Origin: Marinomonas sp.
GTDB lineage: Bacteria; Pseudomonadota; Gammaproteobacteria; Pseudomonadales; Marinomonadaceae
NCBI GenBank assembly: GCA_039970455.1
Contig: JBDVLX010000174.1
Coordinates: 7,626 to 71,625, forward strand
Direction of reading: 5' to 3'
Length of the DNA: 64,000 bases
In this document: one piece after another, positions 4,662-54,002 of the stretch
Layout: each line of letters begins with the position of its first letter
How positions within the stretch are numbered: the first letter of the stretch is position 1
Translations under genes and position numbers: made by a program
The notes under the pieces: model-generated
Database searches by the model: none
The model's input: only the letters and a program-made list of their open reading frames with translations
What the model was told of the DNA's origin: nothing

Positions 4662-4662
4662 C

Positions 4663-14899: not shown

Positions 14900-14918
14900 T
14901 TATTGGAAATCTATGATT

Positions 14919-14981: not shown

Positions 14982-15003
14982 CTTAATTCGAGGAGTGCAT
15001 GCC

Positions 15004-17819: not shown

Positions 17820-17832
17820 GAGCAAATACTCT

Positions 17833-18753: not shown

Positions 18754-18807
18754 ATAAGATATTTTACCTTTATATTTTTACATTGGATAAACAGTTAAGG
18801 AGCCGTC

Positions 18808-19461
18808 ATGGCATTGGCATTTTTTGATCTGGATAACACGTTAGTGAAAGGCGACACCGCACAGGCTTTTTCTGAATATTTAGCGGCAAGCGCCTTGCCA
18901 ACAGCGGATGACTTTTTAGCGGTTAATGATAAGTACATGGAAGAATACGATGATGGCACACTCAATTTAGATGAGTATATGCACTATACGTTAGCGCCAT
19001 TGTTTACTTTAGACAGTGCCAAAGTAGACACTCTTATTCGTGATTTTATAGACACTGTCGTTAGCACAATGATTCCTAAGAGTACTCATACACTACTGTC
19101 CAAGCATAAAGACGCTGGCGATGAGATTGTCATTATTTCGGCTACTGGCATTCATTTAGTTGAGCCGATTGCCAAATATCTGGGCGTAGAAAATGCACTT
19201 GGTGTCAATATCGAGCTTATTGATGGTTACATTACAGGTAAGTTGGTTGGCGTGCCTACCTTCCGTGAAGGCAAGGTCATACATGCCGAACAGTGGGCCA
19301 AAGATCATGGTTATACATTAGATGAAACCTACTTTTACAGCGATTCCCATAATGATTTACCCTTATTGGAAAAAGTACGTTATCCGATAGCTGTTAATCC
19401 GGATTCTGTTCTAGAGAAAATAGCCAAAGATCGAAATTGGCTGATTGTTGAGATGTGTTGA
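18808..19461 (+). CDS. HAD-IB (SerB-like) phosphatase
   Basis: Motif I FFDLDNTL, motif II IISAT, motif III GKV, motif IV YSDSHNDLPLL. Confidence 0.93.
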   Translation: MALAFFDLDNTLVKGDTAQAFSEYLAASALPTADDFLAVNDKYMEEYDDGTLNLDEYMHYTLAPLFTLDSAKVDTLIRDFIDTVVSTMIPKSTHTLLSKHKDAGDEIVIISATGIHLVEPIAKYLGVENALGVNIELIDGYITGKLVGVPTFREGKVIHAEQWAKDHGYTLDETYFYSDSHNDLPLLEKVRYPIAVNPDSVLEKIAKDRNWLIVEMC

Positions 19462-19555
19462 TTTAAATTTCCCAATTACTCTATATAAAACCAATACAGA
19501 TATCACCTTAACATGACATTGGTATGAAATAGCCTTACTAGGAGTAAATAACAGC

Positions 19556-20833: not shown

Positions 20834-20961
20834 GTAAAAATTATACCTTTATAGAGAGAAGACATTAGTTCTAGGAAGATGCGAAAAAGAGTGAAAAGAC
20901 TTATTTAAATCTAAGGCAGAATACGCTACTTTATTGTCTTTGTATGGGAAGACAATAAATA

Positions 20962-22671: not shown

Positions 22672-22677
22672 AAATCG

Positions 22678-22700
22678 AAACGGGGCAATACGCCCCGTTT
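22678..22700. terminator. Bidirectional intrinsic terminator
   Basis: AAACGGGGC-AATAC-GCCCCGTTT between convergent genes. Confidence 0.85.
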
Positions 22701-22710
22701 TACTGATAAA

Positions 22711-23211
22711 TTAGTACTTACCCAATTCAAGTACTGTTTGCTCAAGAACTTTGCTGCCGTCCATTGCTTTAATTGTTACGTAATACGCATGATCTTTACC
22801 ACCAGAGCAAGGTGGCATATAAGCACCCGCTTTATCCCAACCTGGACCACGGTGTTCTGCAATCATTTTGAAAGGTGCTGGTAAAGCGTATGTGTGACCT
22901 AAAACAGAAGGAATTTCTACTTCCGATACAGAAGAGGCTAACGTGTAGCTAATCTGCCCATGACCACCGTTATTCATATTTTGAGAGTCACGGTCGCTGT
23001 ATTCCATAACAATAACGTCTGTTCCTTTTGGCAACTTGCTAAGCGTCAAAGCTGGCGTCGCAGGGCTAATACCACCAAATTTTTGACACTGTTCAGCAGC
23101 TGGCACCGTTGAGCCGTCCCAAAATGTATCCGTTAGTTTAGCATCAAACGCCAGTGCGCCAGTGCTGATAGCAGACAAACCAAGTGATATAGCTAATACT
23201 TTAAGTTTCAT
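22711..23211 (-). CDS. Exported protein, possibly YbhB/YbcL (PEBP/Raf-kinase-inhibitor-like) family
   Basis: Signal peptide (GALA|F), P-x-L...lPKGT...MEYSD, GHG and YMPPCSGGKDHAY resembling the PEBP 'Y-GPCPP-G-H-Y' motif. Confidence 0.6.
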   Translation of the reverse strand: MKLKVLAISLGLSAISTGALAFDAKLTDTFWDGSTVPAAEQCQKFGGISPATPALTLSKLPKGTDVIVMEYSDRDSQNMNNGGHGQISYTLASSVSEVEIPSVLGHTYALPAPFKMIAEHRGPGWDKAGAYMPPCSGGKDHAYYVTIKAMDGSKVLEQTVLELGKY

Positions 23212-23438
23212 AACTGAGATCCCTTTTGTTCCATTTAAATGGCATTATTGACTTAATAACAAAGCTGTTACGTTAGATTACAGAAAAAGTATCACTTTAT
23301 GATGACAAAAAAGAAAGAAATACATTTTCCGATCTCATCTTTCATTTTTACTCAATAACCTCATCTCTCGTTTACCCGAGTTTGTGTTATAGTGATGGGT
23401 CATTAAAAAACATCAAATGGCGGGTTCAAAAAAAGCTC

Positions 23439-24062
23439 ATGGATAAACACAAAGGCAACTTATTCATTTTATCGGCTCCTTCTGGTGCGGGAAAATCTAC
23501 CTTGTACAAAGCCTTACTTAAGCAAGATCAGCAAGTACGCATTTCCATTTCTCACACCACAAGAGCGCCAAGAACAGGTGAAGAAGACGGTCGTGAGTAC
23601 TTCTTCACAGACCCAGAATCTTTCTTGGACATGATTGCGGAAGACGCCTTTTTTGAACACGCTCAAGTATTCGATAATTACTACGGCACATCGAAAGCAT
23701 CCATTTTCGATATGTTGGAGCAAGGCTTAGATGTGATCTTAGAAATTGATTGGCAAGGTGCTCGCCAAGTCCGTCAACTTTACCCTGAAGCCATAGGGAT
23801 TTTCATTCTTCCGCCGTCATTACAAGCCTTAGAAGAACGCTTAAAAGGTCGTGCAACCGACTCAGAAGAAGTGATTCAAAGACGCATGGCGAAGGCCGTT
23901 AATGAAATGTCCCATTACAACGAATACGATTTCGTCATCGTCAATGATGATTTAGATGAAGCTCTTTCTCAAATGGGGGCAATTTTTAAGGCTATGCGCT
24001 CAAAAACCCCGATTATCGAGCAAAAACATGGCAATCTTATAAATGATCTCTTGTCATTGTAA
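23439..24062 (+). CDS. gmk: Guanylate kinase
   Basis: SAPSGAGKST, SISHTTRAPR, LEIDWQGARQV; start placed at ATG 23439. Confidence 0.98.
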   Translation: MDKHKGNLFILSAPSGAGKSTLYKALLKQDQQVRISISHTTRAPRTGEEDGREYFFTDPESFLDMIAEDAFFEHAQVFDNYYGTSKASIFDMLEQGLDVILEIDWQGARQVRQLYPEAIGIFILPPSLQALEERLKGRATDSEEVIQRRMAKAVNEMSHYNEYDFVIVNDDLDEALSQMGAIFKAMRSKTPIIEQKHGNLINDLLSL

Positions 24063-32836: not shown

Positions 32837-32923
32837 TAAAAAATACTACAGATAAGATAAATCTGACGTTAAGTTTAGCAATATAACAACATATGTAAAA
32901 AAATGCCCGGGAGGCTTAATATA

Positions 32924-33946
32924 ATGAAATCGAATGTTAGTAAAATACTATCTACTGCCGCTGTTGCAGCGACTCTAAGTACAGCAGCGACTGCAGCTAC
33001 ACTAGATGACGTTAAATCTAAAGGCTTTATCCAATGTGGTGTTAGCCAAGGCGTTCCAGGCTTCTCCAACGCAGATTCTGATGGTAACTGGACTGGTATT
33101 GACGTTGACGCTTGTCGCGCCGCTGCTGCAGCCATTTTTGGTGATGCTCAAAAAGTAAAATTCACTCCTCTTTCTGCTAAAGAGCGTTTTACAGCTCTAC
33201 AATCTGGCGAAATCGACGTTCTTTCTCGTAACACTACTTGGACTTACACTCGTGACTCGTCTCTAGGTTTAGACTTCACAGCTGTTAACTTCTATGACGG
33301 TCAAGGTTTCATGGCTCGTAAAGACCTAGGCGTTGAATCTGCTTTGGATCTTGATGGTGCAACAGTTTGTACAGAACAAGGTACTACAACTGAATTGAAC
33401 ATGGCTGACTTCTTCCGTAAGCACAAATTATCTTACGTTCCAGTTGTTGTTCAAAAAGCAGACGAAGCACTAGCCGCTTACGCTTCTGGCCGTTGTGATG
33501 TATTCACAACAGATAAATCAGGTCTTGCAGCTCAGCGTTCTAAGTTAGCCAACCCTGCTGATCACATGATTCTTCCAGAAACGATTTCTAAAGAGCCTCT
33601 AGGTCCTGTTGTTCGTCACGGCGACAACCAGTGGAAAGATATCGTAACTTGGGCAATGTTCGTTCAGGTTAACGCGGAAGAAATGGGCATCACTTCTGAA
33701 AACGTTGCTAAAATCAAAAGTGAAACAAATGATCCAGGCATTGCGCGCTTACTAGGTAAAGAAGGCGACATGGGTGCTCAACTAGGACTTTCTAGTGATT
33801 GGGCTTACAACATCATTGCTCAAGTAGGTAACTACGGTGAAGTATTTGAACGTAATGTTGGTCCATCTACTCCAGTTGGTCTTCCACGTGGTATTAACAA
33901 CCTATGGACTGAAGGCGGTGTAATGTACGCGCCACCAGTACGTTAA
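32924..33946 (+). CDS. aapJ: General L-amino acid ABC transporter substrate-binding protein (AapJ/BztA)
   Basis: Signal peptide, CGVSQGVPGFS, RFTALQSGEIDVLSRNTTWT, ISKEPLGP, YAPPVR. Confidence 0.95.
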   Translation: MKSNVSKILSTAAVAATLSTAATAATLDDVKSKGFIQCGVSQGVPGFSNADSDGNWTGIDVDACRAAAAAIFGDAQKVKFTPLSAKERFTALQSGEIDVLSRNTTWTYTRDSSLGLDFTAVNFYDGQGFMARKDLGVESALDLDGATVCTEQGTTTELNMADFFRKHKLSYVPVVVQKADEALAAYASGRCDVFTTDKSGLAAQRSKLANPADHMILPETISKEPLGPVVRHGDNQWKDIVTWAMFVQVNAEEMGITSENVAKIKSETNDPGIARLLGKEGDMGAQLGLSSDWAYNIIAQVGNYGEVFERNVGPSTPVGLPRGINNLWTEGGVMYAPPVR

Positions 33947-33981
33947 TTATTAATACCTAGAGCAACCTGCTTCGGGTATTT

Positions 33982-34012
33982 ATTCAGCGGTGATTTTTCA
34001 TCGCCGCTGAAT
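33982..34012 (+). terminator. Stem-loop between aapJ and aapQ (mRNA stabiliser or attenuator)
   Basis: ATTCAGCGGTGAT-TTTTC-ATCGCCGCTGAAT with one G-U pair. Confidence 0.65.
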
Positions 34013-34064
34013 TTCTCCCCCCTTTCTTACACATCTGACGAGCATTCCATTTGCCTGAACTAAG

Positions 34065-35240
34065 ATGAGCGATAAAACAACTTCAAGTAACAAAAGCCTT
34101 TTGCACGATGCAGGCACCCGTGCCTTGATCTTCCAAATAGTGCTTCTAGCCGTGGTAGTCTTCGTAGGTTATTACCTATTCAGTAACTTACAAGCCAACC
34201 TAGCTAATCAAGGTATTTCCACTGGTTTTACATTTCTAAATCAGCCAGCCGGATTTCCCATCCTTATTCATTTGATTGAGTACACAGAAGCAAACACCTA
34301 TGGTCGCGCATTTGTGGTTGCCTTAATCAACACCATTGTTATTTCCTTAATGGGGATTGTGTTAGCAACTGTCATAGGTGTCATCATGGGTGTTGCCCGA
34401 CTGTCGAAAAACTGGCTAGTCGCACGTTTAGCAACCGTCTATGTTGAAACCTTGCGTAATATCCCATTACTACTGCAAATGTTCTTTTGGTATTTTGCAG
34501 TACTTTCAGCGCTACCAGCACCACGTAATAGTTATGAGTTTGCAGACTTCCTATTAAACAAACGCGGAATCTACTCTCCTAACCCTATTTTTCAAGATGG
34601 CTTCGGCCTTGTCATCTTCGGCTTTATTTTATCTATTATTGCTTCTATCGCTGTGATTGTCTGGGCAAAAAAACGACAAACAAGAACTGGTCTTTGGTTT
34701 CCCGCTTATTGGTCTTCTTTAGGTTTAATTCTTGTTATTACCTTTTTGTCCCTTGCTGTTGCAGGCTTTCCAATAGAGTTCGATTTACCACAAAAGAGTC
34801 GCTTCAATATCACTGGCGGTATGGTTCTACCTCCTGAGTTTGTCGCTGTTCTTTTGGCTCTATCCACCTACACGGGCTCTTTCATCGCTGAAATCGTCCG
34901 TGCAGGTATTTTGTCTGTTAACTGGGGGCAAACAGAAGCAGCAAGATCTTTAGGCTTAAAAGACAGTTTGACTCAACGTTTAATTGTATTGCCTCAAGCA
35001 TTGCGCGTTATCATCCCACCATTAACAAGCCAATATTTAAACTTAGCGAAAAACTCTTCGCTAGGTGCAGCTATTGCCTACCCTGAACTGGTTGCTGTTG
35101 TTATGGGTACGACGCTAAACCAAACAGGTCAAGCAATAGAAACCATTGGTCTTTGTATGCTTGTTTACGGTTCATTGAGCTTATCTATCTCTATGTTCAT
35201 GAACTGGTACAACAAAAAAATGTCATTAGTGGAACGCTAG
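34065..35240 (+). CDS. aapQ: General L-amino acid ABC transporter permease AapQ
   Basis: RNIPLLLQ, FIAEIVRAGI, GQTEAARSLGL, LAKNSSL. Confidence 0.94.
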   Translation: MSDKTTSSNKSLLHDAGTRALIFQIVLLAVVVFVGYYLFSNLQANLANQGISTGFTFLNQPAGFPILIHLIEYTEANTYGRAFVVALINTIVISLMGIVLATVIGVIMGVARLSKNWLVARLATVYVETLRNIPLLLQMFFWYFAVLSALPAPRNSYEFADFLLNKRGIYSPNPIFQDGFGLVIFGFILSIIASIAVIVWAKKRQTRTGLWFPAYWSSLGLILVITFLSLAVAGFPIEFDLPQKSRFNITGGMVLPPEFVAVLLALSTYTGSFIAEIVRAGILSVNWGQTEAARSLGLKDSLTQRLIVLPQALRVIIPPLTSQYLNLAKNSSLGAAIAYPELVAVVMGTTLNQTGQAIETIGLCMLVYGSLSLSISMFMNWYNKKMSLVER

Positions 35241-35250
35241 GAGGCTAATC

Positions 35251-36351
35251 ATGGCTATTATATTTAAACCATCACCAAGCCTCCCACCACCAGTTAATTC
35301 GGTCGGTGCAGTGGCATGGGTTCGTCAAAATCTATTGTCGTCCCCTCTTAATATTTTCCTGACACTGTTTAGTGTTTATATTTTATACCTATTGCTTCCA
35401 CCAGTTATTCAATGGGGCATTATCGATGCAACATGGACAGGTGAATCAAAAGCAACTTGTACTGGCGGCGGTGCTTGTTGGGCATTTATAGGGGTTTACT
35501 TCGAACAATTTATGTATGGGTTATATCCATCAGAAGAAACATGGCGTATTAATATTGCCTTGATTCTATTGGTGGTAATGGTTGGTGCTTTCGCCATTAA
35601 GTCCGTCAATAAATTGCACCTATCCATTGGGATCATCGTTGTCTACCCTATCATTGCCTACTTCTTGTTTGCTGGTGGCGTACTTGGGTTGGAAGTTGTT
35701 GAGACTTCTCTATGGGGTGGCTTATTCCTAACGACTCTTTTGGGTGTCATTGGTATTGTTGCTTCCCTTCCTCTGGGTGTCTTGCTGGCTCTAGGCCGTC
35801 AATCAAGTATGCCGATCACTAAGTCTGTTTGTATTGTGTTCATTGAAACCATTCGGGCTGTGCCTTTGATCACCATCTTGTTTATGGCATCCGTTATGAT
35901 TCCATTGTTCCTACCTGATGGTATGAACTTTAATAAGCTAATGCGTGTATTGATTGGTATTACCTTATTCTCCGCCGCTTACATGGCCGAGGTAATTCGT
36001 GGTGGCTTGCAAGCTATTCCAAAAGGTCAGTATGAAGCCGCTGATGCAATGGGATTATCTTACTGGCAGTCAATGGTTTTGGTTATCTTGCCACAAGCAT
36101 TGAAATTGGTTATTCCTGGTATCGTAAACACCTTCATTGGTCTGTTTAAAGATACCACTCTAGTTTACATCGTCGGTATGTTTGATTTGCTAGGTCGAAT
36201 CCAAGCCGCTACACATGATGCAAATTGGTTAGGAACAACCATAGAAGGTTATGCCTTTGCTGGATTCATTTACTGGGCGGCCTGTTTTGGTATGTCTCGC
36301 TACAGTATGAGAATCGAGCGTAAGTTAGAAACTGGGCACAAGCGAAATTAG
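35251..36351 (+). CDS. aapM: General L-amino acid ABC transporter permease AapM
   Basis: IRAVPLITILF, AYMAEVIRGGLQAIPKGQYEAA, FKDTTLV. Confidence 0.94.
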   Translation: MAIIFKPSPSLPPPVNSVGAVAWVRQNLLSSPLNIFLTLFSVYILYLLLPPVIQWGIIDATWTGESKATCTGGGACWAFIGVYFEQFMYGLYPSEETWRINIALILLVVMVGAFAIKSVNKLHLSIGIIVVYPIIAYFLFAGGVLGLEVVETSLWGGLFLTTLLGVIGIVASLPLGVLLALGRQSSMPITKSVCIVFIETIRAVPLITILFMASVMIPLFLPDGMNFNKLMRVLIGITLFSAAYMAEVIRGGLQAIPKGQYEAADAMGLSYWQSMVLVILPQALKLVIPGIVNTFIGLFKDTTLVYIVGMFDLLGRIQAATHDANWLGTTIEGYAFAGFIYWAACFGMSRYSMRIERKLETGHKRN

Positions 36352-36373
36352 TTAAGAATTTGAGGTCTATATA

Positions 36374-37153
36374 ATGTCAAATACAAATATGGCTCGTGCT
36401 CAGCTTGCGCAGGGCGAAGAAGCAATCATCGAATTTAACGATGTAAACAAATGGTACGGTGATTTCCACGTATTAAAGAACATCAATTTCAGCATTAAAA
36501 AAGGCGAGCGTATCGTTGTATGCGGCCCTTCTGGTTCTGGTAAATCAACCATGACGCGTTGTATCAACCGTCTAGAAGAGCACCAAAAAGGAACCATTCT
36601 GGTTGATGGCGTTGAAATGAACGATAACCTGAAGAACATCGAAGCGATCCGCAAAGATGTTGGTATGGTTTTCCAGCACTTCAACCTGTTCCCACACCTA
36701 ACCATTTTGGAAAACCTGACTTTGGCGCCAATTTGGGTACGTAAAACACCAAAGAAAGAAGCTGAAGAAATGGCAATGCATTACTTGGAGCGTGTAAAAA
36801 TCGCTAACCAAGCATTGAAATACCCAGGTCAGCTTTCTGGTGGTCAGCAACAACGTGTGGCGATTGCTCGTGGCTTGTGTATGCAACCTCGTATCATGTT
36901 GTTTGATGAGCCAACCTCTGCACTTGACCCTGAAATGATCAAGGAAGTATTGGACGTTATGATCCAATTGGCAGAAGAAGGTATGACAATGGTATGTGTA
37001 ACCCATGAAATGGGCTTCGCAAAAACCGTTGCCGACCGAGTTGTGTTCATGGATGCTGGTGAAATCGTTGAAGCCAATGAGCCAAATGAGTTTTTCAACA
37101 ATCCTCAGCATGATCGTACTCAAAACTTCCTAAGCCAAATCCTAAATCATTAA
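36374..37153 (+). CDS. aapP: General L-amino acid ABC transporter ATP-binding protein AapP
   Basis: [31 protein letters not shown]. Confidence 0.95.
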
Positions 37154-39992: not shown

Positions 39993-40022
39993 AAAACCGT
40001 TCCTGAGATGAGGGTAGATCCT

Positions 40023-40718
40023 GTGACCGGTAAAAAAGTATTAATTATTGATGACGAGTCTTCAATACGCGAAATGATCGCGATTGCTCTAGAAATGGCA
40101 GGCTATGAATATTTAGAAGCCGAAAATATTCAGCAAGCCCACGAAATTATCGTCGACCATCGACCAGATTTAATTCTTGTTGATTGGATGATGCCGGGCG
40201 GCAGTGGCATTGAGCTCACTCGTCGCTTGAAGAAAGACAACACAACGGCTGAAATTCCAGTCATCATGTTGACGGCGAAAAGTGAAGAAGACAACAAAAT
40301 CCAAGGCTTAGAAGTCGGTGCGGATGACTACATTACCAAACCTTTCTCTCCTCGTGAATTGGTTGCGAGATTAAAAGCCGTATTGCGCCGAGCAACACCT
40401 CAAGGCATTGATGAACCGATTGAAATTGAAGGGTTAATGCTAGACCCTATCAGTCAACGAGTCACAATAGGGGCTCGCCCTTTGGATATGGGGCCAACGG
40501 AATACAGATTGCTAAAATTCTTAATGACACACCAAGAACGCGCCTACTCTAGAGCACAACTTCTAGATCAGGTTTGGGGTGGTAATGTCTATGTAGAAGA
40601 GCGCACCGTTGATGTTCATATTCGTCGTTTACGCAAAGCAATTGGCAGTTCTCATGATTTCTTGATACAAACCGTTCGCGGAACTGGCTACCGATTTTCA
40701 GCAAAAAGGTCAGCATGA
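40023..40718 (+). CDS. phoB: Phosphate regulon response regulator PhoB
   Basis: LVDWMMPGGSG, GADDYITKPFSPRELVARLK, RTVDVHIRRLRK; GTG start after GAGG. Confidence 0.97.
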   Translation: MTGKKVLIIDDESSIREMIAIALEMAGYEYLEAENIQQAHEIIVDHRPDLILVDWMMPGGSGIELTRRLKKDNTTAEIPVIMLTAKSEEDNKIQGLEVGADDYITKPFSPRELVARLKAVLRRATPQGIDEPIEIEGLMLDPISQRVTIGARPLDMGPTEYRLLKFLMTHQERAYSRAQLLDQVWGGNVYVEERTVDVHIRRLRKAIGSSHDFLIQTVRGTGYRFSAKRSA

Positions 40719-42043
40719 AAAGCATTTGGCGAAATACCATACTAAGTTGGCTGTCGGGCCTCGCAGCTTGCATTGTCATTGGCCTTATCATTGGTCAATT
40801 GTTAGGGGTGTTATTGCTGTATGTTTTAGGATCTTTGTATTGGCAGCTATACCAGCTTTACCAATTCCATAGCTGGCTGCGCTATTCCAGTAAAGCATCG
40901 CCTCCGGAAGCCAGTGGAATTTGGGGAGACGTTTTTGACGCCGTTTACCGTTTGCAAAAAAAGCAACGTAAATCAAAACGTCGAATGCGCCAAGCATTAA
41001 CACGGATCGAAAGCTCGACGACCGCCTTAAAAGAAGGCGTGATTATGGCGGACAATCAAGGTAATTTAGAGTGGTGGAACAATTCTGCAGCTCACTTCTT
41101 TGGTCTGATGCGCCCTGTAGATCGAGGTCAGATAATCACCAACATCGTTCGCAGTCCGGAATTTTTCCGCTACTTCTCACAAAAACGCTTTGGGGAACCA
41201 CTGGTTATTAAATCCCCTGCAAAAGAAGGTGTTTACCTAGAAATACAAACAACGCTGTACGATAAAAATGATCACCTAATTTTTGTCCGTGATGTCACCC
41301 GTTTGCATCTTCTTGAACAAATGCGCAAAGACTTTGTTGCCAACGCCTCTCACGAGCTCAAAACACCTTTGACAGTGATTAAAGGTTATCTAGAAACCCT
41401 CGACATGTTTAAAGACAGTCTGCCGAAAAGCATGCAAAAAGGCATAGTTAACATGTCTGAACAGTCTGAGCGTATGGAACACCTCATTGAAGACTTGCTT
41501 CTTTTATCTCGTTTAGAAAGTGATGAAAAACGCGAAGAGAATCAATGGCACAAAGTCTTAGACGTTGTAAACGCCATTCAAAGTGCTGTGGAATCCATTG
41601 TGACTGAGCAGCACATCATCTCTGTCAAAATTCCTGATGAAGCTTATGTCTACGGTTCCTACAAAGAGCTCTATAGCGCTTTCTCTAACCTAATTGTTAA
41701 TGCCATTAAATACTCACCGGATGGTGGCGAAGTGGAAATCAAATGGGAATCTAGTCATCTCAATGGCGTATTCTCTGTGAAAGATGCTGGTTTAGGAATA
41801 GACCCTAGACACATTCCAAGGCTCACTGAGCGCTTCTTTAGAGTAGACAAGGGAAGAGGCTCAAAAACCGGAGGAACAGGCCTTGGGTTAGCCATAGTGA
41901 AGCATGTGTTGTTGCATCATGACGCTAAGCTTCAAATTCGCAGCCAACCGGGCCATGGCAGTACTTTTTCCTGCTATTTCCCAGCCAACCGAACACAGCA
42001 TGAGTCTGTCTCGACCCTCATTTTCAAAGGCAATGAAAGCTAA
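40715..42043 (+). CDS. phoR: Phosphate regulon sensor kinase PhoR
   Basis: PAS region, MRKDFVANASHELKTPLTV, NAIKYS, RFFRVDKGR...GGTGLGLAIVKH. Confidence 0.96.
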   Translation: MKSIWRNTILSWLSGLAACIVIGLIIGQLLGVLLLYVLGSLYWQLYQLYQFHSWLRYSSKASPPEASGIWGDVFDAVYRLQKKQRKSKRRMRQALTRIESSTTALKEGVIMADNQGNLEWWNNSAAHFFGLMRPVDRGQIITNIVRSPEFFRYFSQKRFGEPLVIKSPAKEGVYLEIQTTLYDKNDHLIFVRDVTRLHLLEQMRKDFVANASHELKTPLTVIKGYLETLDMFKDSLPKSMQKGIVNMSEQSERMEHLIEDLLLLSRLESDEKREENQWHKVLDVVNAIQSAVESIVTEQHIISVKIPDEAYVYGSYKELYSAFSNLIVNAIKYSPDGGEVEIKWESSHLNGVFSVKDAGLGIDPRHIPRLTERFFRVDKGRGSKTGGTGLGLAIVKHVLLHHDAKLQIRSQPGHGSTFSCYFPANRTQHESVSTLIFKGNES

Positions 42044-42111: not shown

Positions 42112-42963
42112 TTATAAGCTGTTAAATAGTTGTGCGATAAAGTCTTCTTTTTCCTTGTCTTGGTCAATTAAGCTCAAGGTCACGGTTAAGAAGGTTGAAT
42201 CATGTTTCTTCTCTGTCGTAGATACTGATTGCACATAATAATTTAAACGGTTCATCGTGCCTTTATGCTCCAAATCCAGCACGGCTTGCCCTAACACCTG
42301 AGGCACCACATCGTCACTTTTAATCAACATGGTGGCTTCTTGCTTGCTAAATTGGATGACCATGCAGCGAAATTGCTTTTCCTCGAATCGTACAATCGTC
42401 GGCAATTTCACATCTTTCACTGTCACAACGGGGTCATCAGGGTGAGTGAACTTAGTTGCTTGAATAGGTTGAGTAGATTTCCCCGCCCCCATTAGGACAT
42501 CAATAGAAGCGGAAGCCACACCTTGGTTTCCTGTGTTAGCTTGACGAGGTTGTTGCGACACTAAGCGACCTTCCAACTTATGCTTCTTCGCAGCAGACAC
42601 CACTTTATTAATTAACTGCTCGCCTGAGAACGGCTTACCAAGATAATCCGTTACGCCTGCTTGTACCGCTTCAACAACATGGCTTTTATCACCTCGACTG
42701 GTAATCATGACAAATGGCACGTCGGCTTTCTGATATTGCGGCTGTTCGCGACACCATCTCAGTAACTCAACGCCTGTCATTTCAGGCATTTCCCAATCAC
42801 AAAGCACCATATTAAATTGCATTTTGGTCAATAGCTGCTGTGCTTTTCGACCATTAATCGCATCTTCAATTTCGACCGCTGGAAATTGCTTGCGCAAAGT
42901 TCTACGAATCAAGTCTCGCGTAAAAGATGCGTCATCAACTACTAGTATTTTCAGTGCCATCAC
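42112..42963 (-). CDS. Response regulator: receiver domain plus uncharacterised C-terminal beta domain
   Basis: VVDD...LCDWEMPEMTG...TSRG...GKPFS intact receiver; syntenic with the regulator between phoR and phoU in Pseudomonas. Confidence 0.88.
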   Translation of the reverse strand: MMALKILVVDDASFTRDLIRRTLRKQFPAVEIEDAINGRKAQQLLTKMQFNMVLCDWEMPEMTGVELLRWCREQPQYQKADVPFVMITSRGDKSHVVEAVQAGVTDYLGKPFSGEQLINKVVSAAKKHKLEGRLVSQQPRQANTGNQGVASASIDVLMGAGKSTQPIQATKFTHPDDPVVTVKDVKLPTIVRFEEKQFRCMVIQFSKQEATMLIKSDDVVPQVLGQAVLDLEHKGTMNRLNYYVQSVSTTEKKHDSTFLTVTLSLIDQDKEKEDFIAQLFNSL

Positions 42964-43941: not shown

Positions 43942-44451
43942 ATGCGTTTTTTCACTCTGTTAATATTGCTGCTTTCTAGCCCTCTCTCCCTGCCTTCTTA
44001 CGCATTAGAAAAGCCGTCTCATAGAGTTGTTTTAACCGTATCTGGGGCAATTAATGTGACGAATGTTAACCAAGAAGCGGCATTCGACATGACGATGCTA
44101 CAGGCTTTACCGCAATACGTTGTAACAACGAAGAACCCTTGGGCGAAAGCAGCGCATACTTATCAAGGCTTTTCAGCTATCGACCTACTCAACTCTTTGG
44201 GCAATAAGGGCAACTTACTTCAAGTCACCGCCTTAAATAAATACATGACTGAGATTCCGCTTTCTGACTTCGTGGAGCAAGGTGCAATTTTTGCTACACA
44301 CCAAGATGGTGTACCTATGAGCGTTCGGAACCTTGGTCCAATTATGGTGATTTACCCTTTTGATGCGAATGAAAACTTAAGGTCAGAGCTGTATTACAGC
44401 CGATCTATTTGGCAAGTAAGCAGTATTAAAACCCTTATTGTTGCGGAGTAG
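43942..44451 (+). CDS. Exported protein with a molybdopterin-oxidoreductase-like fold and no Cys
   Basis: Signal peptide; VLTVSG, TTKNPW, ALNKY, DGVPMSVRNLGPIMVIYP, SIWQV motifs. Confidence 0.75.
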   Translation: MRFFTLLILLLSSPLSLPSYALEKPSHRVVLTVSGAINVTNVNQEAAFDMTMLQALPQYVVTTKNPWAKAAHTYQGFSAIDLLNSLGNKGNLLQVTALNKYMTEIPLSDFVEQGAIFATHQDGVPMSVRNLGPIMVIYPFDANENLRSELYYSRSIWQVSSIKTLIVAE

Positions 44452-44454
44452 AAG

Positions 44455-46257
44455 GTGCTTTTATCCAAACAAAAAGCATGGCTAGCAAGCTTCCGTAAAT
44501 CGGTTCTATATGCTTTCATCATCCTTATCATCACGATTTCTATTACGCTATTTGGCATTATCACTTACACAAATGAAAGTACGAAGGACAATAGCCGTAG
44601 AATCTTTGAAAGCTCTCTATGGTGCGCACTGCAGCTGCAAATACAGTCTTATCGGTTATTGGATTACCTCATTAACCTGGATGGAAGCACCTTCCCCTTA
44701 AAAGGCGAAGCATTTTTCGAATACGACCTGCTTATGAGTCGTATCGACTTACTTAGAGAAGGCGAAATCGGTTCGCTTATTCGCAACTTTGAAGAAGGAC
44801 GCATCGTAAAACACCTCAACCTAATCAACGGTGAATTAGAGCTATTAAGCTTTCATATATCCAAATTAGAGCAAAATGACCTATCCTATTTAACCAGCAT
44901 AATTGAGCGTATTCAGCGCCTTCAGCCTAAAATTGATGAGTTTGTCTCTCTGGTGAATAAAGGCAGTACGGATTACATAAATAAAGAACATCAAGATTTT
45001 GAGCAAAGTCTAAGCGCCATCCAGTTTTTATCTATGGCGCTATTAATCTGTTTGTTACTCTTATCTTTCTTTACGGTTAAAGCTCTGCTTGAGTTGCAAA
45101 AGGCATTAAAAGACAGCAATAAACTGAAAGCAGGTATGCAGGCTGTTCATGAAGACAAAACCAATATGCTGGCCTTTATTCATCAGGAACTTAGGTCGCC
45201 GATCAACGCTATTTTGGGTATTGCTCAGACGGTCAAAAATGCACCTTCTACTCAATCATCTACCGAGCTTTCCAAACACATTGAAGAGGCAGGTGATCAA
45301 TTACTTCAAAACATCGAAATGTTCTCTGATTTAGCGCAAATTGAGACGGATGAATTCTCTCTTCTGCATACAACCGATAACCTTCAAAAGCATGTGGAAG
45401 CCTGCCTGACACAATTTGAATCTCAAATGACTCGTAAAGGTCTACAAGGCATTGTTTACATCGATCCTCTTTTACCAAAAGACATTACCATCGACTTCAA
45501 TCGATTAAAAAAAATCATTATCAGCTTACTGCAAAACGCATTAACTCACACGCCTTCTGGCAGCATCAGTGTGCAAATTCGCCCTTCTATTCTTGCCATT
45601 CCATTAATGACAACACCTCCCGTATCTACGCAAGAAACAAGAATGCTGCAAATTGCTGTGAAAGACACAGGCTTAGGCATGCCAGGGCAATTGCAAGATA
45701 ACTTGAGAATGAGCCCATTACTTCCCCAAGATGACGAATCCATATTAAGACGAATTGGCTTGAACTTAGCTCTATGTCATAAGTTAGTGAAATTCATGAA
45801 TGGTGAAATTCATTTTTATAATGCACCTCAAAAAGGCTGTGAGTTCTGGGTCGATGTTCCCTATTATGTTGAACGTGATGACACCCAAATTGACAAGCCT
45901 GAGAAAGCATCAAACCACCAGTTTTGCGCGAATAAGCATGTACTTATCATTGAAGAAGATTCACACTTGGCGAAAGTTCTGTCCAATCAGCTAGCAACAT
46001 TAGACATTAAAGTAACCCTTTTTAGAGAGGGACACATTCCGTCAAAAGAAAAGCTGGATGCCATCATTCTTGGTAATTCAACTTGGCTAGAAAGAAACGG
46101 ATTCGATATGATGGAGCAGTGGAAAAAGCAAGGAACCCCTATTCTTAGCTACAGTACTGATGCGATTAAACAATATGGGCTGCATATCACACCTCTATCG
46201 TTTCCGCTGTTACAGAGCCAGATAGAGAAAATAGTCACTCAGCGTTTTAAACAATAA
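44455..46257 (+). CDS. Hybrid sensor histidine-kinase-like protein with degenerate H-box and receiver
   Basis: Two TM, HQELRSPINAILG in place of SHELRTP, N-box QNALTHT, VKDTGLGM, G2 IGLNL, receiver DAIILG. Confidence 0.85.
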   Translation: MLLSKQKAWLASFRKSVLYAFIILIITISITLFGIITYTNESTKDNSRRIFESSLWCALQLQIQSYRLLDYLINLDGSTFPLKGEAFFEYDLLMSRIDLLREGEIGSLIRNFEEGRIVKHLNLINGELELLSFHISKLEQNDLSYLTSIIERIQRLQPKIDEFVSLVNKGSTDYINKEHQDFEQSLSAIQFLSMALLICLLLLSFFTVKALLELQKALKDSNKLKAGMQAVHEDKTNMLAFIHQELRSPINAILGIAQTVKNAPSTQSSTELSKHIEEAGDQLLQNIEMFSDLAQIETDEFSLLHTTDNLQKHVEACLTQFESQMTRKGLQGIVYIDPLLPKDITIDFNRLKKIIISLLQNALTHTPSGSISVQIRPSILAIPLMTTPPVSTQETRMLQIAVKDTGLGMPGQLQDNLRMSPLLPQDDESILRRIGLNLALCHKLVKFMNGEIHFYNAPQKGCEFWVDVPYYVERDDTQIDKPEKASNHQFCANKHVLIIEEDSHLAKVLSNQLATLDIKVTLFREGHIPSKEKLDAIILGNSTWLERNGFDMMEQWKKQGTPILSYSTDAIKQYGLHITPLSFPLLQSQIEKIVTQRFKQ

Positions 46258-46281
46258 ATACATTCTAACAAGGCACTTTAA

Positions 46282-46617
46282 ATGATCGACCACTCCTATC
46301 TCGACTCACTTGTTGAGCTACTTGGAAAAGACACCATAAACGGAATACACTTAGTTTATGTAGATGAAAGTGCCGAAAAGCTGCAAGATTTATTAACCGC
46401 ATGGAAAGCAAAGAACTACACAGAGCTGCAAGACATCAGTCATTCATTGAAATCTTCCAGCTTAAGTATGGCTATGACAGACTTTGCAGAACAATGCCGG
46501 ATAATAGAAGAACTGTCGCAAACAGCAGATGAGCAAGGCGTTAAACCAATCATAGAGAGCTTGTCTGTTATCTATCACAAGTCCTTAGAAGAACTCGTGG
46601 CCTATTTCGAAGACTGA
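46282..46617 (+). CDS. Stand-alone Hpt domain protein
   Basis: 111 aa, helical; ISHSLKSSS phosphoacceptor motif. Confidence 0.88.
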   Translation: MIDHSYLDSLVELLGKDTINGIHLVYVDESAEKLQDLLTAWKAKNYTELQDISHSLKSSSLSMAMTDFAEQCRIIEELSQTADEQGVKPIIESLSVIYHKSLEELVAYFED

Positions 46618-46643
46618 TAAAAAAAGAAGCAACCTGAATTCGC

Positions 46644-47150
46644 TTAAACTGCAAAGCTCCAGTTCATATCCGTTGCGGAAACAAAAGTCGCCACGAAGGA
46701 TTCAATTCCCGCTTGATCAACTTCAGTAAAACGTTCGACCTTTGGACTGTCCATATCAAAAACGCCAATCAACTTACCCTGTGAAATAACAGGCACTACC
46801 AGCTCAGAAGCAGAAGCGGCGTCGCAGGCTATGTGTCCATCAAAAGCATGAACATCTTCGATACGTTGTGTTTGTTGGGTTTTCGCCGCTTCACCACACA
46901 CTCCTCGACCAAAAGGAATACGAGTACAAGCCACTTTGCCCATATAAGGTCCAAGCACTAATTCTTCATCACGAGCAAAGTAAAAACCAGACCAGTTAAG
47001 ATCAGGAACAGTCTGCATGACAAAAGCAGAAAATTGAGCAGCATTACAGATGAAATCTCGCTCTCCACTGAGCAAGGCCGCCAGTTGAGCGTTTAATTCT
47101 TGATAGGTTTCTTGCGGGGAAGAGGTTGTATTTACTTCTATTGTAAACAT
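46644..47150 (-). CDS. msrC: GAF-domain free methionine-(R)-sulfoxide reductase (MsrC/YebR)
   Basis: LNWSGFY, LGPYMGKVACTRIPFGRGVCG, HIACDAASASE with all three Cys. Confidence 0.9.
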   Translation of the reverse strand: MFTIEVNTTSSPQETYQELNAQLAALLSGERDFICNAAQFSAFVMQTVPDLNWSGFYFARDEELVLGPYMGKVACTRIPFGRGVCGEAAKTQQTQRIEDVHAFDGHIACDAASASELVVPVISQGKLIGVFDMDSPKVERFTEVDQAGIESFVATFVSATDMNWSFAV

Positions 47151-47238
47151 GAAGGTTATCACCAAAAAAGACAAAGCCAGATGATAACAAAATCTGTACA
47201 GAGGAGAGAAACAGATAAAAGGGATTGATTAAGAAAGT

Positions 47239-47287: not shown

Positions 47288-48001
47288 TTACACGCCTTTT
47301 ACTTCATCTGCTAAATCATTCACGTTCACGTGGCGTACATCGACACCTTTCACCATGAAGATCAAATGCTGACAAGTGTGGCGAGCATGGTCACCAATGC
47401 GTTCAAGCGAACGAAGTACCCAAATGACATTGATCACGCTCGAAATACTGCGTGGATCTTCCATCATATAAGTCACTAAAGAGCGCAAAGCCGCTTCGTA
47501 TTCACGGTCTACTTCACGGTCTTTTTTCGCTACTTTAATTGCCGCATCGATATCTAATCGAGCGTAAGCGTCCAATGAGTCATGAATCATTCGTGACACC
47601 ATTTGACCAATACGGCTGATCTCAACATAACCGCGTGGAGATTCACCACCGTCGATCAAATCAGAAGTCAATTTGGCGATCTTTTTCGCTTCATCACCTA
47701 TTCGCTCTAATTCACTCACGGCTTTACTGATCGACAGAATCATACGCAAGTCAGAGGCTGCAGGCTGACGCTTAGCAAGAATGCGCGTACATTCTTCGTC
47801 TATCAAGCCATCTAGTTCATTAACAGAAGCGTCTTTTGCTCTGACTTCTTCTGCTAATTCGCCGTTAGCGTCTAAAAGAGCCTGAACTGCATCTTGAACC
47901 TGAGTCTCAACAATACCGCCCATGGTCAAAAAGTGTTGGCGCAACATTTCTAGCTCGTTATTAAACTGCTGAGAAATATGATCCGTTGTTAATTCTTTCA
48001 T
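47288..48001 (-). CDS. phoU: Phosphate signalling complex protein PhoU
   Basis: HISQQFNNELE, QPAASDLR, LERIGD twice. Confidence 0.97.
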   Translation of the reverse strand: MKELTTDHISQQFNNELEMLRQHFLTMGGIVETQVQDAVQALLDANGELAEEVRAKDASVNELDGLIDEECTRILAKRQPAASDLRMILSISKAVSELERIGDEAKKIAKLTSDLIDGGESPRGYVEISRIGQMVSRMIHDSLDAYARLDIDAAIKVAKKDREVDREYEAALRSLVTYMMEDPRSISSVINVIWVLRSLERIGDHARHTCQHLIFMVKGVDVRHVNVNDLADEVKGV

Positions 48002-48015: not shown

Positions 48016-48846
48016 CTAGCCGTAGCGACCTGTGATGTAATCTTCTGTTTGTTGCTTACTTGGGTTAGTAAATAAAGAATTCGTATCGCCAAATTCAATC
48101 AAATCACCCATGTACATGAAGGCAGTGTAATCCGATACACGCGCTGCCTGCTGCATATTGTGAGTTACGATCGCAATGGTGAAATCGTTTTTCAGTTCGT
48201 GGATTAACTCTTCAATTTTCAATGTTGAGATTGGGTCCAAGGCAGAAGCTGGCTCATCCAACAATAAAACTTCAGGTTTTACCGCTACCGTACGAGCGAT
48301 AACCAAACGCTGCTGCTGACCACCAGACATGCCCAAAGCACTTTCGTGTAGACGGTCTTTTACTTCGTCCCACAATGCCGCTGAACGCAACGCCCATTCA
48401 ACGGTTTCGTCAATCACACGCTTTTGGTTAATGCCTTGAATACGCAAGCCGTACGCTACGTTTTCGTAGATGCTTTTTGGGAATGGATTTGGCTTTTGGA
48501 ACACCATACCAACACGACGACGCAATTCTGCTACGTCCGTGCCTTTTTCATAAATATTGCTGTCATGCAGGTTGATCTCACCGGTAATACGGCAGCTATC
48601 AACCAAGTCATTCATGCGGTTGAAACAACGCAACAGCGTTGATTTACCACAACCAGAAGGACCGATGAAAGCCGTTACCTTCTTCTCAGGGATGATCATA
48701 TCCACGCCTTTAAGCGCTTCTTTTTCCCCATAGTAAAGATGCAAATCTTTAACAGAAAGGCAAACGGTTTCATCTTCGATGCGCAAAGCTTGCTGGCTAC
48801 GCTGCATCGCTGAAATATCAATTGAGTGTGTTTTTGCTTCGCTCAT
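48016..48846 (-). CDS. pstB: Phosphate ABC transporter ATP-binding protein PstB
   Basis: [37 protein letters not shown]. Confidence 0.98.
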
Positions 48847-48863: not shown

Positions 48864-50579
48864 TTACATTTCTAGCGATTTGTATTTTTCACGTAGGTGA
48901 TTTCGAATCGTTACTGCTGAAAGATTCAGTAGTGCAATAACCATCACAAGTAATAACGCTGTTGCATAAACAAGTGGTCGCGCTGCTTCCACGTTCGGGC
49001 TTTGGAAACCTACATCATAGATGTGGAAGCCTAAGTGCATGAACTTCTGATCCAAATGTATGAATGGGTAGTTTCCATCCAATGGCAAAGTTGGAGCTAG
49101 TTTCACAACACCCACCAACATCAAAGGCGCAACCTCACCAGCGGCACGAGCCACCGCCAAGATAACACCTGTCATGATTGCTGGGCTGGCCATTGGAAGA
49201 ACCACACGCCATAGGGTTTCGGCTTTTGTCGCACCTAACGCCAAGCTACCTTCGCGTACGTTACGAGGAATACGAGACAAACCTTCTTCTGTCGCCACGA
49301 TAACCACTGGCACAGTTAACAATGCCAAAGTAATCGATGCCCACATCAAGCCACCCGTACCAAAGGTTGGTGACGGCAATGCTTCTGGGAAAAACGCTTG
49401 GTCGATTCCTGAACCTAAAAAGTAGATAAAGAAACCCAAACCAAATACACCGTAAACAATAGAAGGAACACCAGCCAAGTTGTTTACTGCGATACGAATC
49501 ACACGAGTAATAACACCTTGTTTCGCGTATTCACGAAGATAAACGGCCGCAACAACACCAAAAGGCGTAACCAATACTGTCATTAACAATACCATCATCA
49601 CAGTACCGAAGATCGCAGGGAAAACACCACCTTCTGTATTCGCTTCACGAGGATCATCGGTTAGGAATTCCCATACTTTATTAAAGTAGAAACCTAACTT
49701 CTCGAAAACGCCCATCGCATTAGGACGGAAAGCGTGAACGATTTTCGATACTTGGATTTCATGTACCGTACCGTCCATTACTCTTACAGTGAATGAGTCA
49801 CGATTGATCTGCTGGTATAGATCTGCAAGGTTCGCTTGCAAGCCTTTATACTCTTCATCGTATTGTGAACGCTCTGCCGCAAGGTCCGCTTCTACTTCTA
49901 GTGTTAATTCACCGTTCAGTTCAAAGCGACGCTGCTTAAGACGAATACGCTCAAGGGCATGGTTGATTTTACCGATATCACCTTTTTCGATGTCTTTGAT
50001 TTCGTCATGGATAACCGCAGCACGCTCGATGCTTTTCTCGAAAGTTGCCCAAGTCGCCAAAGCAGAATCTGTCGGCGTTAAGTCCGATGTTTCAGACACA
50101 ACCTGACCATCTTCTTTCACTGACATTAGGTAACCGTAAAGATTACCCCATTCATGACGCTCTGCAGCGAACAACATTTCCGGTGTTTGAATGTCGCTTA
50201 GGTATTTATCCAACACCCAACCAAAATCCGCACCGTAAACATCGCGGTTACCCATTTTAAGAAGCGTACGCTTAAGCAAAGGGTCGCCACCTTCAGGGAG
50301 GTTTACACCGGCTTCACGTAATTGAGCAGCCGTTACTTCTACGCTCTCAACACGTTCTGCCGCAATGGTGTAAGACTTCTCACCAGGCAATGAATAAGTC
50401 GCTTGCATCACATCCGCTGGCCAAAAATGACCCAAGCCTCTGACAGCAATCAAAAGTAATAAACCGACTACCATGATGACCGAAATCGCCACAGCACCTG
50501 CATTTAGCCACACCCATGGATCACCAGATTTAACCCATTGAGATACGGACTGTTTTTCCATTTTCATTTCGCTACTCAT
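48864..50579 (-). CDS. pstA: Phosphate ABC transporter permease PstA (long form with large periplasmic insert)
   Basis: [38 protein letters not shown]. Confidence 0.97.
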
Positions 50580-52853
50580 TACAATGACCCGTATTTTTTG
50601 CGTAGGTGCTGACGCACGGTTTCAGCGATCGTATTCACTACAAAAGTGAAGATGAACAGAACAAACGCTGCCAAGAACAGAATACGATAATGTGAACTTC
50701 CCACTTCTGATTCCGGTACTTCTACCGCAAGGTTCGCTGCTAACGTACGCATACCTTCGAAGATGTTGAAGTCCATAATTGGCGTATTACCAGTCGCCAT
50801 AAGAACGATCATGGTTTCACCTACCGCACGACCCATACCAATCATGACGGCAGAGAAGATACCTGGGCTCGCTGTTGGCAATACAACGCGAGTCATGGTT
50901 TGCCAATAAGTTGCACCCAATGCTAGAGAACCTTGAGTTAAGGCTTTTGGCACACTGAAAATTGCATCTTCCGTGATAGAGAAGATGGTTGGGATAACCG
51001 CAAAGCCCATCGCAAAACCAACAACTAAAGCGTTACGCTGGTCGAAAGTGATGCCTAAGTCATGAGTAATCCAGCCGCGAATGTTGCCACCGAAGAAGCT
51101 TAATTCAATGATTGGGCTCAAGATCAAACAGAACCAAGCAAGGAAAACAATCACAGGAATAAGCAATAATGGCTGCCAGCCGTCTGGCACTAACCAGCGA
51201 ATGTTGGTTGGCAATCTTGACCATAGATAAGCAAATAGCAGAATACCAGCAGGTAAAACCACCAATATGCTAAAGGTTGCCGCTAAGTTTTCTTCAAGGA
51301 AAGGCGCAAAGAAAAGACCCGCTAAGAAACCTAGGATAACCGTTGGCAAAGCTTCCATCAGCTCGATCACAGGCTTGATCTTACGACGCAAGGCTGGCGC
51401 CATGAAGTAAGCCGTGTAGATCGCACCACAGATTGCCAAAGGCACAGCCATCAGCATAGCGTAGAACGCCGCTTTTAAGGTACCAAATGCCAAAGGCATC
51501 AAGCTGTACTTAGGCTCGAAGTCGTTACTTGCTGAAGACGACTGCCAAGTGTAAGTCGGCTCTGGGTAACTTTCGTACCAAACTTCACCCCAGATAGACG
51601 ACCAAGACACTTCTGGGTGCTCGTTATCTACGTGGTAGAAATGCAGACCTTTACCGTCTTCTAGTAATAAACCATTCGCGCGAGGAGAGAAACTAATCAA
51701 ACGAGCTGTTTCATCACTCAAACGTTCATCGATTACTTTACGCTTAGAGGTGGCGTTGTAAATCGCCACTAAACCGTTTTCGTCCAATGTGGCAAAACCT
51801 TTACGGCGTTGTTCCATAGCCGTATCAACAATCGCATTTGGCTGCTGAACATCACGGATGAAATGCAGTTTTTCTTCGTTGGTTTCGTCATCACGAACGT
51901 TAAACCATTGGCTCACACGACCAGAAGAATCCGCCACCATTACCGAGGTTTTACCTACTAGAGGTTTTACCTACTAGGTAGTTCATTGAAACAAGCTGGG
52001 AATTCTCAGAAACCAATGAAGCGCTGTCTTTCAGACTAATGTTATCGAAGTCACGTAGATCAAACTCGCTGAATTCACCTGAGTTTGTTGCGATATACAA
52101 AGAACGCTGATTACCACTGATGAGTAGACTGTTGATGTCCGCAATGAATGGAATCGCTTCGCGTTGTTCAGTTAACTCAACTTCTTCGGTGATGAAATTA
52201 ACATCTTTAGTTACTTTCAAAACCGATGTTTGAGATTCGCCAGAAGCAGCGATCGTCAAACCATCTTCACTGTCGCGAATCGCCAATTTCTCAATGGCGA
52301 AATCCGCAACCTTGATGGCTTCTTCACCATAAGGATACTCAACAAAAGGCTTAATCTGACGCTTTCCATCAGGGTACGAAGTACGGTAGCTGTGCTGTTT
52401 AATCACCACTTTACCGTCGGCGTAACCGAATGCCAGTAAACGACTCGTATCAGACTCAACGGTGAAACTTGTCACCTCTTCTGCACGGGCGCTTTCTATT
52501 GTCTCAATGACAGAACCGTCCTCGATAGAAAAGAATACGATGGCACCATTGCTGGCAACACGCATACCAATTTCAGATTGCTCTTCCGTTGCTAAATAAA
52601 GGCTTTTACCTTCATCTTGAGCAGGCAAAGAATAACTTGCCTTAGGGTCTATTGAAGCACCAGAAAATAATGGCGCTACTTCATAAAAGAGATAGAAACA
52701 GATCAGAAGTACAGCAAGAATTACGCTGCTCCCTCCGACTGCTATGCCCATTCCAGCCGCTTTGTCTTTCAGGGCTCGAAACTTACGATGACGCTTTAAA
52801 GCTGGCGTGTTGAAATCCAGTTCTGGCATCTGATGGTCAGTCGATTTAGTCAT
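50579..52853 (-). pseudogene. pstC: Phosphate ABC permease PstC (long form), frameshifted by a 16-bp tandem duplication into ORFs 51951-52853 and 50579-51940
   Basis: Removing one GAGGTTTTACCTACTA copy fuses the frames as ...MNYLVGKTSVMVADSSG... (2259 nt, 752 aa); the C-terminal part has PLAFGTLKAA and GRAVGETM. Confidence 0.92.
51945..51976. repeat. Exact 16-bp tandem duplication (GAGGTTTTACCTACTA x2)
   Basis: Copies at 51945-51960 and 51961-51976. Confidence 0.97.
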
Positions 52854-52965: not shown

Positions 52966-53934
52966 TTAGTTAATGCCTAAAGTATCAAGGTATTTATCAG
53001 CAACTTTAGCCGGTAGAGGTACGTAACCGTCTTTTACAACAACCTCTTGACCCATTTTCGAAAGAACCATTTTAACGAATTCACGCTGTAGTGGTGCTAG
53101 TGGCTTGTTAGGTGCTTTGTTTACGTAAACGTAAAGGAAGCGAGACAGTGGGTATTTACCAGCTGCTGCGTTTTCTGGCGTCGCTTCTACTAATGCGCCA
53201 CCTTCTTTCTTAGAAAGAGGTAATGCACGTACAGAAGACGTTTTGTAACCGATACCAGAGTAACCAATACTGTTAAGAGAAGTAGAAACAGACTGTACAA
53301 CAGAAGCAGAACCAGGCTGTTCGTTTACAGAGTTTTTGAAGTCACCTTTGAAAAGTGCGTTGTCTTTGAAGTAACCGTAAGTACCAGATACTGAGTTACG
53401 ACCGAACAATTGAACGTCACGGTTAGCCCAAGCACCAGTCAAACCTGCTTTACCCCAGTTAGTGATGTCTTCGCTGTGGCCACCTTTACGAGTAGAAGAG
53501 AAGATCGCATCAACTTCAGGAAGAGACAAACCTTTTACTGGGTTATCTTTGTGTACGAAAACTGCTAGAGCGTCGATAGCAACTGGGATAGCCGTTGGCT
53601 TGTAACCGAATTTCTTCTCAAACGCTGCAATTTCTTTGTCTTTCATAGTACGAGACATAGGACCGAAGTTAGACGTGCCTTCTGTCAATGCTGGTGGCGC
53701 AGTAGAAGAACCAGCCGCTTGAATTTGGATGTTTACATTTGGGTATAGACGTTTGAAGTCTTCAGCCCATAATGTCATCAAGTTAGCCAAAGTATCAGAA
53801 CCAACACTTGAGATGTTACCAGAAACACCGCTAGCCTTAGTATAAGTATTCAAACCTGCATCAACGTCCGCAACAGCGTTAAAAGAAACACTTGCCGCTG
53901 CTGTCATAGCTAAACCCGCAACTAGTTTTTTCAT
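52966..53934 (-). CDS. pstS: Phosphate ABC transporter substrate-binding protein PstS
   Basis: Signal peptide, [46 protein letters not shown]. Confidence 0.96.
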
Positions 53935-54002
53935 CACATAAACCCCAATGGTTATAGTCAAATATTTATGAGCAACTGCCCATAGCTCGTTCGATGGAAC
54001 AC

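Follow-up and report, generated by a model that had tools for sequence, protein, structure and literature searches.

A 16-bp tandem duplication that splits pstC in a near-clonal Marinomonas lineage: a probable, recent loss-of-function allele alongside an independent nonsense allele

The phosphate-transport gene pstC is split in two by an exact 16-bp tandem duplication in a 64,000-nucleotide stretch of DNA from Marinomonas sp. (assembly GCA_039970455.1, contig JBDVLX010000174.1; the whole stretch is hereafter called the window). We consider this duplication, located at 51945-51976, to be real and to have arisen very recently, and we read it not as a device but as a loss-of-function allele; pstC has been knocked out independently at least twice, and this is one of the instances. 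We place the probability of this reading at roughly 60%. The first-pass annotation of the same DNA had left the choice between a Pho-constitutive mutant able to revert by slippage, and as such a possible switch for the Pho regulon, a tolerated split subunit and an assembly artefact. The mutant is favoured here by a frameshift private to the lineage, by a cut through a conserved motif of a predicted propeller domain and by an independent nonsense allele in a sister lineage; the switch found no such backing. Taken alone, the duplication is an ordinary frameshift, and the interest of the case comes from the parallel pstC knockouts and from a change beside the phosphorylation site of PhoB. If confirmed, it would represent a natural case of a repeatedly rewired Pst/Pho circuit, known so far mostly from laboratory selections and from the laboratory strain Sinorhizobium meliloti Rm1021, and it would bear on phosphorus handling by a marine, probably host-associated bacterium.

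The duplication and the two pstC frames

The gene lies on the minus strand of the window. On the plus strand, the unit GAGGTTTTACCTACTA occupies 51945-51960 (copy 1, TAGTAGGTAAAACCTC in gene sense) and is repeated at 51961-51976 (copy 2), with ACC directly before the first copy and GGTAG directly after the second; the coordinates and sequence first given for the duplication are correct. The pair is the top tandem repeat of the window (Tandem Repeats Finder: period 16, 2.1 copies, 100% match, score 66, against 46 for the runner-up), and the chance expectation for an exact 16-bp tandem duplication is about 64000 x 4^-16 = 1.5e-5 per window. The duplicated bases fall in codons 293-298 of a 752-amino-acid PstC. 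With the 16 extra nucleotides of copy 2, the frame is shifted by +1 and a TAA stop is reached two codons on, at 51953-51951. Deletion of one copy restores a single open reading frame (ORF) of 752 amino acids that reads ...NYLVGKTSVMVAD..., as the earlier reconstruction had it. The end points of the duplication share a microhomology of just 1 nt (G). A short palindrome, CTAC-TAG-GTAG, was also observed close to the duplication.

As it stands in the window, pstC consists of two ORFs of 300 and 453 amino acids, and no single intact polypeptide spans the first transmembrane segment (TM1) and the permease core. In gene sense, the junction reads ATG AAC TAC CTA GTA GGT AAA ACC TCT AGT AGG TAA, followed by AACCTCGGTA and then by ATG GTG GCG GAT, so that 10 nt separate the new stop from the ATG at 51940, a spacing noted in the first-pass annotation and seen again here. 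The N fragment (51951-52853, minus strand, 300 amino acids, ending ...NYLVGKTSSR*) comprises a cytoplasmic N-tail, TM1 and, of the propeller described below, about five blades from its N-terminal side. The C fragment (50579-51940, minus strand, 453 amino acids, starting MVADSS... at M300) comprises the last propeller blades and the permease core from TM2 to TM6, and its stop overlaps the start of pstA. By hydropathy, TM1 spans about residues 35-57 and no further hydrophobic segment follows until about residue 451; the break, after residue 298, falls in the large extracytoplasmic region past the first transmembrane segment, where it had been proposed to lie.

The same annotation had the downstream fragment keep the whole permease core. 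For the permease as a whole this requires correction, as TM1 is left on the N fragment; the C fragment still scores above the PstC equivalog cut-off (TIGR02138, 214.6 bits against 196.45; PF00528, 4e-12). It opens with about 150 periplasmic residues and carries neither TM1 nor a signal sequence. The AGGT nearest to its ATG is 14 nt upstream, and a well-spaced Shine-Dalgarno sequence is absent. In annotation, the pair of ORFs is best entered as a single disrupted pstC rather than as two genes. Programmed +1 frameshifting across the insertion (TCT AGT AGG TAA) was also considered and was rejected on sequence grounds, since the site lacks slippery re-pairing and the product would carry five additional residues in an invariant strand.

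The PstC of this lineage belongs to a long form. In the AlphaFold2 model of a 752-amino-acid protein from a Marinomonas metagenome-assembled genome (MAG), 99% identical to the restored PstC, residues 67-404 are all-beta, with about 29 strands and a predicted local distance difference test score (pLDDT) of roughly 70-95, and the membrane part is poorly modelled. The best Protein Data Bank (PDB) matches of the 67-404 domain are seven-bladed WD40 propellers, with a target TM-score of up to 0.69. A Pfam search of this region returned propeller matches below threshold only, and a literature search for a beta-propeller in PstC found nothing relevant. In the predicted structure, the break sits between the strands at 287-292 and 299-303, within one blade. 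It cuts a motif with invariant Y292, L293, G295, S298, M300 and D303, for which the 15 relatives read at the site give the conserved pattern SM-YL-G--S-MVADSSGRVSQWFN. The predicted periplasmic WD40-like propeller, inserted between TM1 and TM2, is retained from Marinomonas to Methylophaga, Oceanococcus and other gammaproteobacteria at about 50% identity.

The comparison of pstC with sister genomes, proposed at the outset as a check, was extended to proteins, loci and sequencing runs (denoted by X numbers). The restored PstC shares 99% identity with the Marinomonas MAG protein mentioned above and 98% with the PstC of Marinomonas sp. 2405UD66-6. Among the best 120 protein homologues, 115 measure 749-755 amino acids, and the other five (553-745 amino acids) are each one-piece matches over 74-99% of the query. 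All 80 related loci from species-representative genomes gave an uninterrupted pstC match; it starts with residue 1 for the 41 closest loci and between residues 2 and 50 for the more distant ones. The 16-mer is present in one copy in each of the 15 relatives read at the site. A strain diverged by 1.6-2.4%, found in runs X3, X4 and X25 of the same study and in the sea-water metagenomes X5 and X6, likewise has one copy; copy 2 is also missing from run X1 and from L001. Because pstC is unbroken and single-copy in all 120 homologues and all 80 loci, the frameshift is private to the lineage and recent. There is no standing repeat tract varying in copy number among strains, as every relative has one copy of what is unique, conserved coding sequence.

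A second pstC null allele and PhoB P63Q in the sister lineage

Run X1, from the same study, differs from the window over 4001-63900 by four single-nucleotide polymorphisms (SNPs) and by the lack of the duplication. One SNP, in phnS2, is synonymous. The other three alter proteins: a phosphonate-associated membrane protein (T95I), PhoB (P63Q) and PstC, where codon 188 changes from GAG to TAG (E188*; codon at 52290-52292, minus strand). The two that lie outside pstC and phoB fall in the phn cluster at 12947-18753, so that all five differences between the window and X1 are in phosphorus-related genes (phn cluster, phoBR and pst-phoU). The stop codon is also present in the assembly GCA_039942295.1, where a 25-kb contig (JBDVCW010000188.1) carries E188* and PhoB P63Q with a single-copy 16-mer, and is otherwise identical to the window over the 22 kb read. 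On this contig, all three differences are in phoB or pstC and each is protein-damaging; E188* and P63Q share one haplotype. In the record of JBDVCW010000188.1, pstC is not called as a gene. E188* represents a null allele independent of the duplication, and the near-clonal Marinomonas lineage of this one study has lost pstC, as its sequences show, by no fewer than two independent mutations.

In PhoB, a D-W-M-L-P loop lies next to the phosphorylation site, and its proline is widely conserved among receiver domains. In the window, phoB is wild type (40008-40718, plus strand), and the sister lineage has a C>A change at 40195 that produces P63Q. In alignment with the E. coli protein (PDB 1b00), D59 corresponds to D53 and P63 to P57; P63 lies four residues past the phospho-acceptor Asp, in this loop. 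The change may dampen the response to a pst-null state; alternatively, it may predate the loss of pstC and have rendered that gene dispensable.

Run X2, also of this study, shows zero differences from the window over 24001-63900 and a single one in 4001-24000, where it shares with X1 a T at 18116, close to the end of a contig; for the window-private C at this position, no indexed public run was listed. The X2 contigs end at or beside 14836/14837, 18116-18119 and 51967, and run unbroken through the X1-private sites 40195 and 52292. These ends at polymorphic sites could reflect more than one haplotype in the sample, or low depth.

Expected effect and competing explanations

The 16 bp in codons 293-298 were duplicated by replication slippage or a template switch, which produced the frameshift and the early stop. 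The C fragment, if produced, could not insert in the right topology, and for this reason PstSCAB would be inactive. The long untranslated stretch may additionally lower the expression of pstA-pstB-phoU by polarity. With Pst lost, the high-phosphate signal that holds PhoR/PhoB off would, by the paradigm of E. coli and S. meliloti, be gone, and the Pho regulon would become partly or fully constitutive. The expected outcome is a cell that lacks high-affinity phosphate uptake and has a derepressed Pho regulon. In Escherichia coli, the loss of any PstSCAB component lifts PhoR/PhoB repression in high phosphate (the Wanner paradigm; PMC6469041), and most PHO-constitutive mutations map to the pst operon (PMC6469041).

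Two known cases come close to the allele described here. In S. meliloti Rm1021, a truncated pstC leads to defective transport and constitutive PhoB, and repair of the allele restores regulation (Yuan et al. 2006, as presented in PMC5127829). In both cases the lesion is strain-specific and truncates PstC while the rest of the pstSCAB-phoU operon stays intact; however, the mutations differ, and that of Rm1021 affects the short-form PstC of an alpha-proteobacterial laboratory strain, whereas the 16-bp duplication affects a long-form PstC with a predicted propeller, in environmental or host-derived assemblies. The second case is phnE of E. coli K-12, which is cryptic by an 8-bp insertion and for which reversion was shown and is readily selected (Makino 1991 and Iqbal 2004, as cited in PMC6469041). 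There too, a Pho-regulon ATP-binding cassette (ABC) transporter permease gene is frameshifted by a short tandem insertion whose precise loss restores the ORF, in our case to a protein 99% identical to the Marinomonas MAG PstC. The unit is 16 bp here instead of 8 bp, the gene is pstC, whose loss also alters signalling, and reversion is so far a possibility. By these analogies, the allele resembles the Rm1021 pstC in its predicted effect and K-12 phnE in its mutational form. In contrast to the PHO-constitutive pst mutants of E. coli, which come from laboratory selections, the two alleles found here are natural and occur within a single population, where one is accompanied by a change in the PhoB receiver domain.

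From this pattern, we infer that mutations have repeatedly targeted the Pst-PhoR-PhoB circuit of the Marinomonas population. The libraries of the source study yield 1.3-1.7 million contigs per run, amounting to 320-440 Mb, and oligo-dT RNA-seq runs are deposited under the same organism label. Because these libraries look eukaryote-derived, the population is probably eukaryote-associated, and its host niche may be one with ample phosphate or organic phosphorus.

Such a niche is also the starting point of the explanation that fares best among the alternatives, namely that an unneeded pstC drifts to a pseudogene in each sub-lineage of a phosphate-replete, probably host-associated population, with no benefit from Pho derepression. 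We regard this neutral decay as unlikely. It would account for two different null alleles in near-identical genomes and fits samples that look like eukaryote-derived libraries; in addition, a damaged PhoB in the sister lineage would silence the pst operon and make pstC neutral there. On the other hand, pstS, pstA, pstB and phoU are still intact, and no other gene is broken in the 64 kb: the other window genes checked all gave full-length matches, and the many disrupted genes of symbiont-type erosion are not seen. Furthermore, with the lineages diverged by about 7e-5 per base, drift predicts far fewer than two independent hits in a single 2.26-kb gene.

At the other end stands a bolder proposal, which we hold only tentatively and consider rather unlikely in its full form: recurrent positive selection on Pst-PhoR-PhoB in host-living Marinomonas. 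The pstC knockouts would lock the Pho regulon on, including lineage-specific uptake of 2-aminoethylphosphonate, the PhoB loop change would retune its output, and the duplication would be a naturally reversible knockout, comparable to that of phnE, acting on the master phosphate signal.

Several points weigh against reading the duplication as a real knockout and one of a set. The phosphorus-related genes that hold all five differences make up 24% of the 59.9 kb compared, and the resulting enrichment figure of 0.24^5 = 8e-4 was calculated post hoc and assumes independent, uniformly placed mutations. The Pho-regulon effect is extrapolated from other bacteria, and three total-RNA runs under the host label contained 0 reads on the pst operon. 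Our view is limited to 64 kb, and a second Pst system or a Pit transporter could be encoded elsewhere in the genome. The genomes are probably metagenome bins, in which a consensus can mix strains. Moreover, the window assembly and X2 probably derive from the same reads, as do X1 and GCA_039942295.1, and these pairs are not independent replicates. For the informative runs, the evidence consists of assembled contigs, with a word depth of about 7. Finally, one X2 contig ends at 51967 and the next begins at 51979, in a region of depth 2.4, the full duplication rests on the window assembly together with six bases of X2, and the sampled junction words of the duplication occur in no indexed public run.

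These last observations raise the question of whether the true sequence is single-copy, the second copy having been made when contig ends were joined across thin coverage. The failure of X2 coverage exactly at the duplication and the empty search for junction words are what such an artefact would produce, and the exact protein of neither pstC fragment was found in a collection of 15 billion proteins. Nevertheless, the X2 contig from Logan, built with a different assembler, continues without mismatch to 51967, six bases past 51961, the point at which a single-copy allele would diverge (AGGTTT against GTAGTT), and these six duplication-specific bases, running into copy 2, need at least two reads. 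The 16-bp unit is below the assembler word length, which speaks against repeat collapse, and the window has no other tandem duplication of this kind. The plausibility of a real lesion also gains from the unrelated second pstC knockout of the sister sample. Since k-mers common to both alleles are missing at the X2 gap as well, the gap is read as thin coverage rather than as a clean bubble. The artefact, one of the options left open in the first-pass annotation, was accordingly graded as improbable.

The possible switch of that annotation, taken as a reversible contingency locus in which frequent gain and loss of the duplication toggles Pst and the Pho regulon, appears very improbable. Short tandem duplications are lost by slippage, and the K-12 phnE insertion reverts readily under selection (Iqbal 2004, as cited in PMC6469041). 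The breaks of the X2 contigs here and at two other polymorphic sites may mean that more than one haplotype is present. Low depth explains these breaks equally well, however, the common k-mers being missing too, and no sample was shown to hold both alleles. Contingency loci similarly shift the frame by a copy change of tandem units within an ORF, but they are long-standing, strain-variable tracts. The duplication has no such pre-existing tract, being a one-off copy of a unique coding sequence for a conserved strand that is single-copy in every relative. The second null allele of the population, moreover, is a nonsense mutation and not switch-like. The allele belongs to the PstC family as a disrupted member and lacks the standing, strain-variable repeat tract that defines a contingency locus; its reversion by slippage, mechanistically something that could occur, would be incidental to the mutation.

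The notion of a functional split PstC, in which re-initiation at the ATG at 51940 yields fragments that assemble into a working permease, is scarcely credible despite the 10-nt gap from stop to ATG and the match of the C fragment to the PstC model, as this fragment opens with propeller residues and has no export signal, its AGGT is too distant for a good Shine-Dalgarno sequence, the cut falls between adjacent strands in an invariant motif and not at a domain boundary, and no naturally split homologue exists among the 120 proteins or 80 loci.

The pst-pho neighbourhood and the phosphonate cluster

The operon order is pstS-pstC-pstA-pstB-phoU, all on the minus strand, and the neighbours of pstC pass the PstS, PstA, PstB and PhoU models. 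Upstream of pstC, the gene for the phosphate-binding protein PstS is intact (52966-53961; TIGR02136, 290 bits). Downstream, pstA (48864-50579) is an intact long form of 571 amino acids whose start overlaps the pstC stop, an arrangement of translational coupling. The PstA model covers only residues 303-563, and the approximately 280 N-terminal residues outside it are probably a second periplasmic domain. The genes for the PstB ATPase (48016-48846; TIGR00972, 414 bits) and PhoU (47288-48001; TIGR02135, 226 bits) are also intact.

The phoBR pair is located about 6 kb away, with an intact phoR sensor kinase gene (40715-42043, plus strand; TIGR02966, 405 bits) following phoB. Between phoR and phoU, a response regulator without an output domain was observed at 42112-42963, together with genes for a hybrid histidine kinase (600 amino acids), an Hpt protein and a GAF-domain protein at 43942-47174. 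A candidate second Pst system at 32903-37153 was ruled out and corresponds to an amino-acid ABC transporter.

The cluster at 12947-18753 encodes 2-aminoethylphosphonate uptake (phnR, phnS2, phnT2, phnU2 and a phn-associated DUF6 membrane protein). No counterpart at 90% identity or above was observed in the 1.6-2.4% diverged strains of runs X3, X5 and X6, and on this sequence comparison the cluster seems accessory to the lineage of the window. Within it, 15097-15138 of phnT2, as well as 48296-48510 of pstB, recruited contigs of very high depth (360-550) that belong to other organisms abundant in the same samples. These stretches are conserved nucleotide-binding motifs, and the deep contigs stand outside the coverage of the Marinomonas genome.

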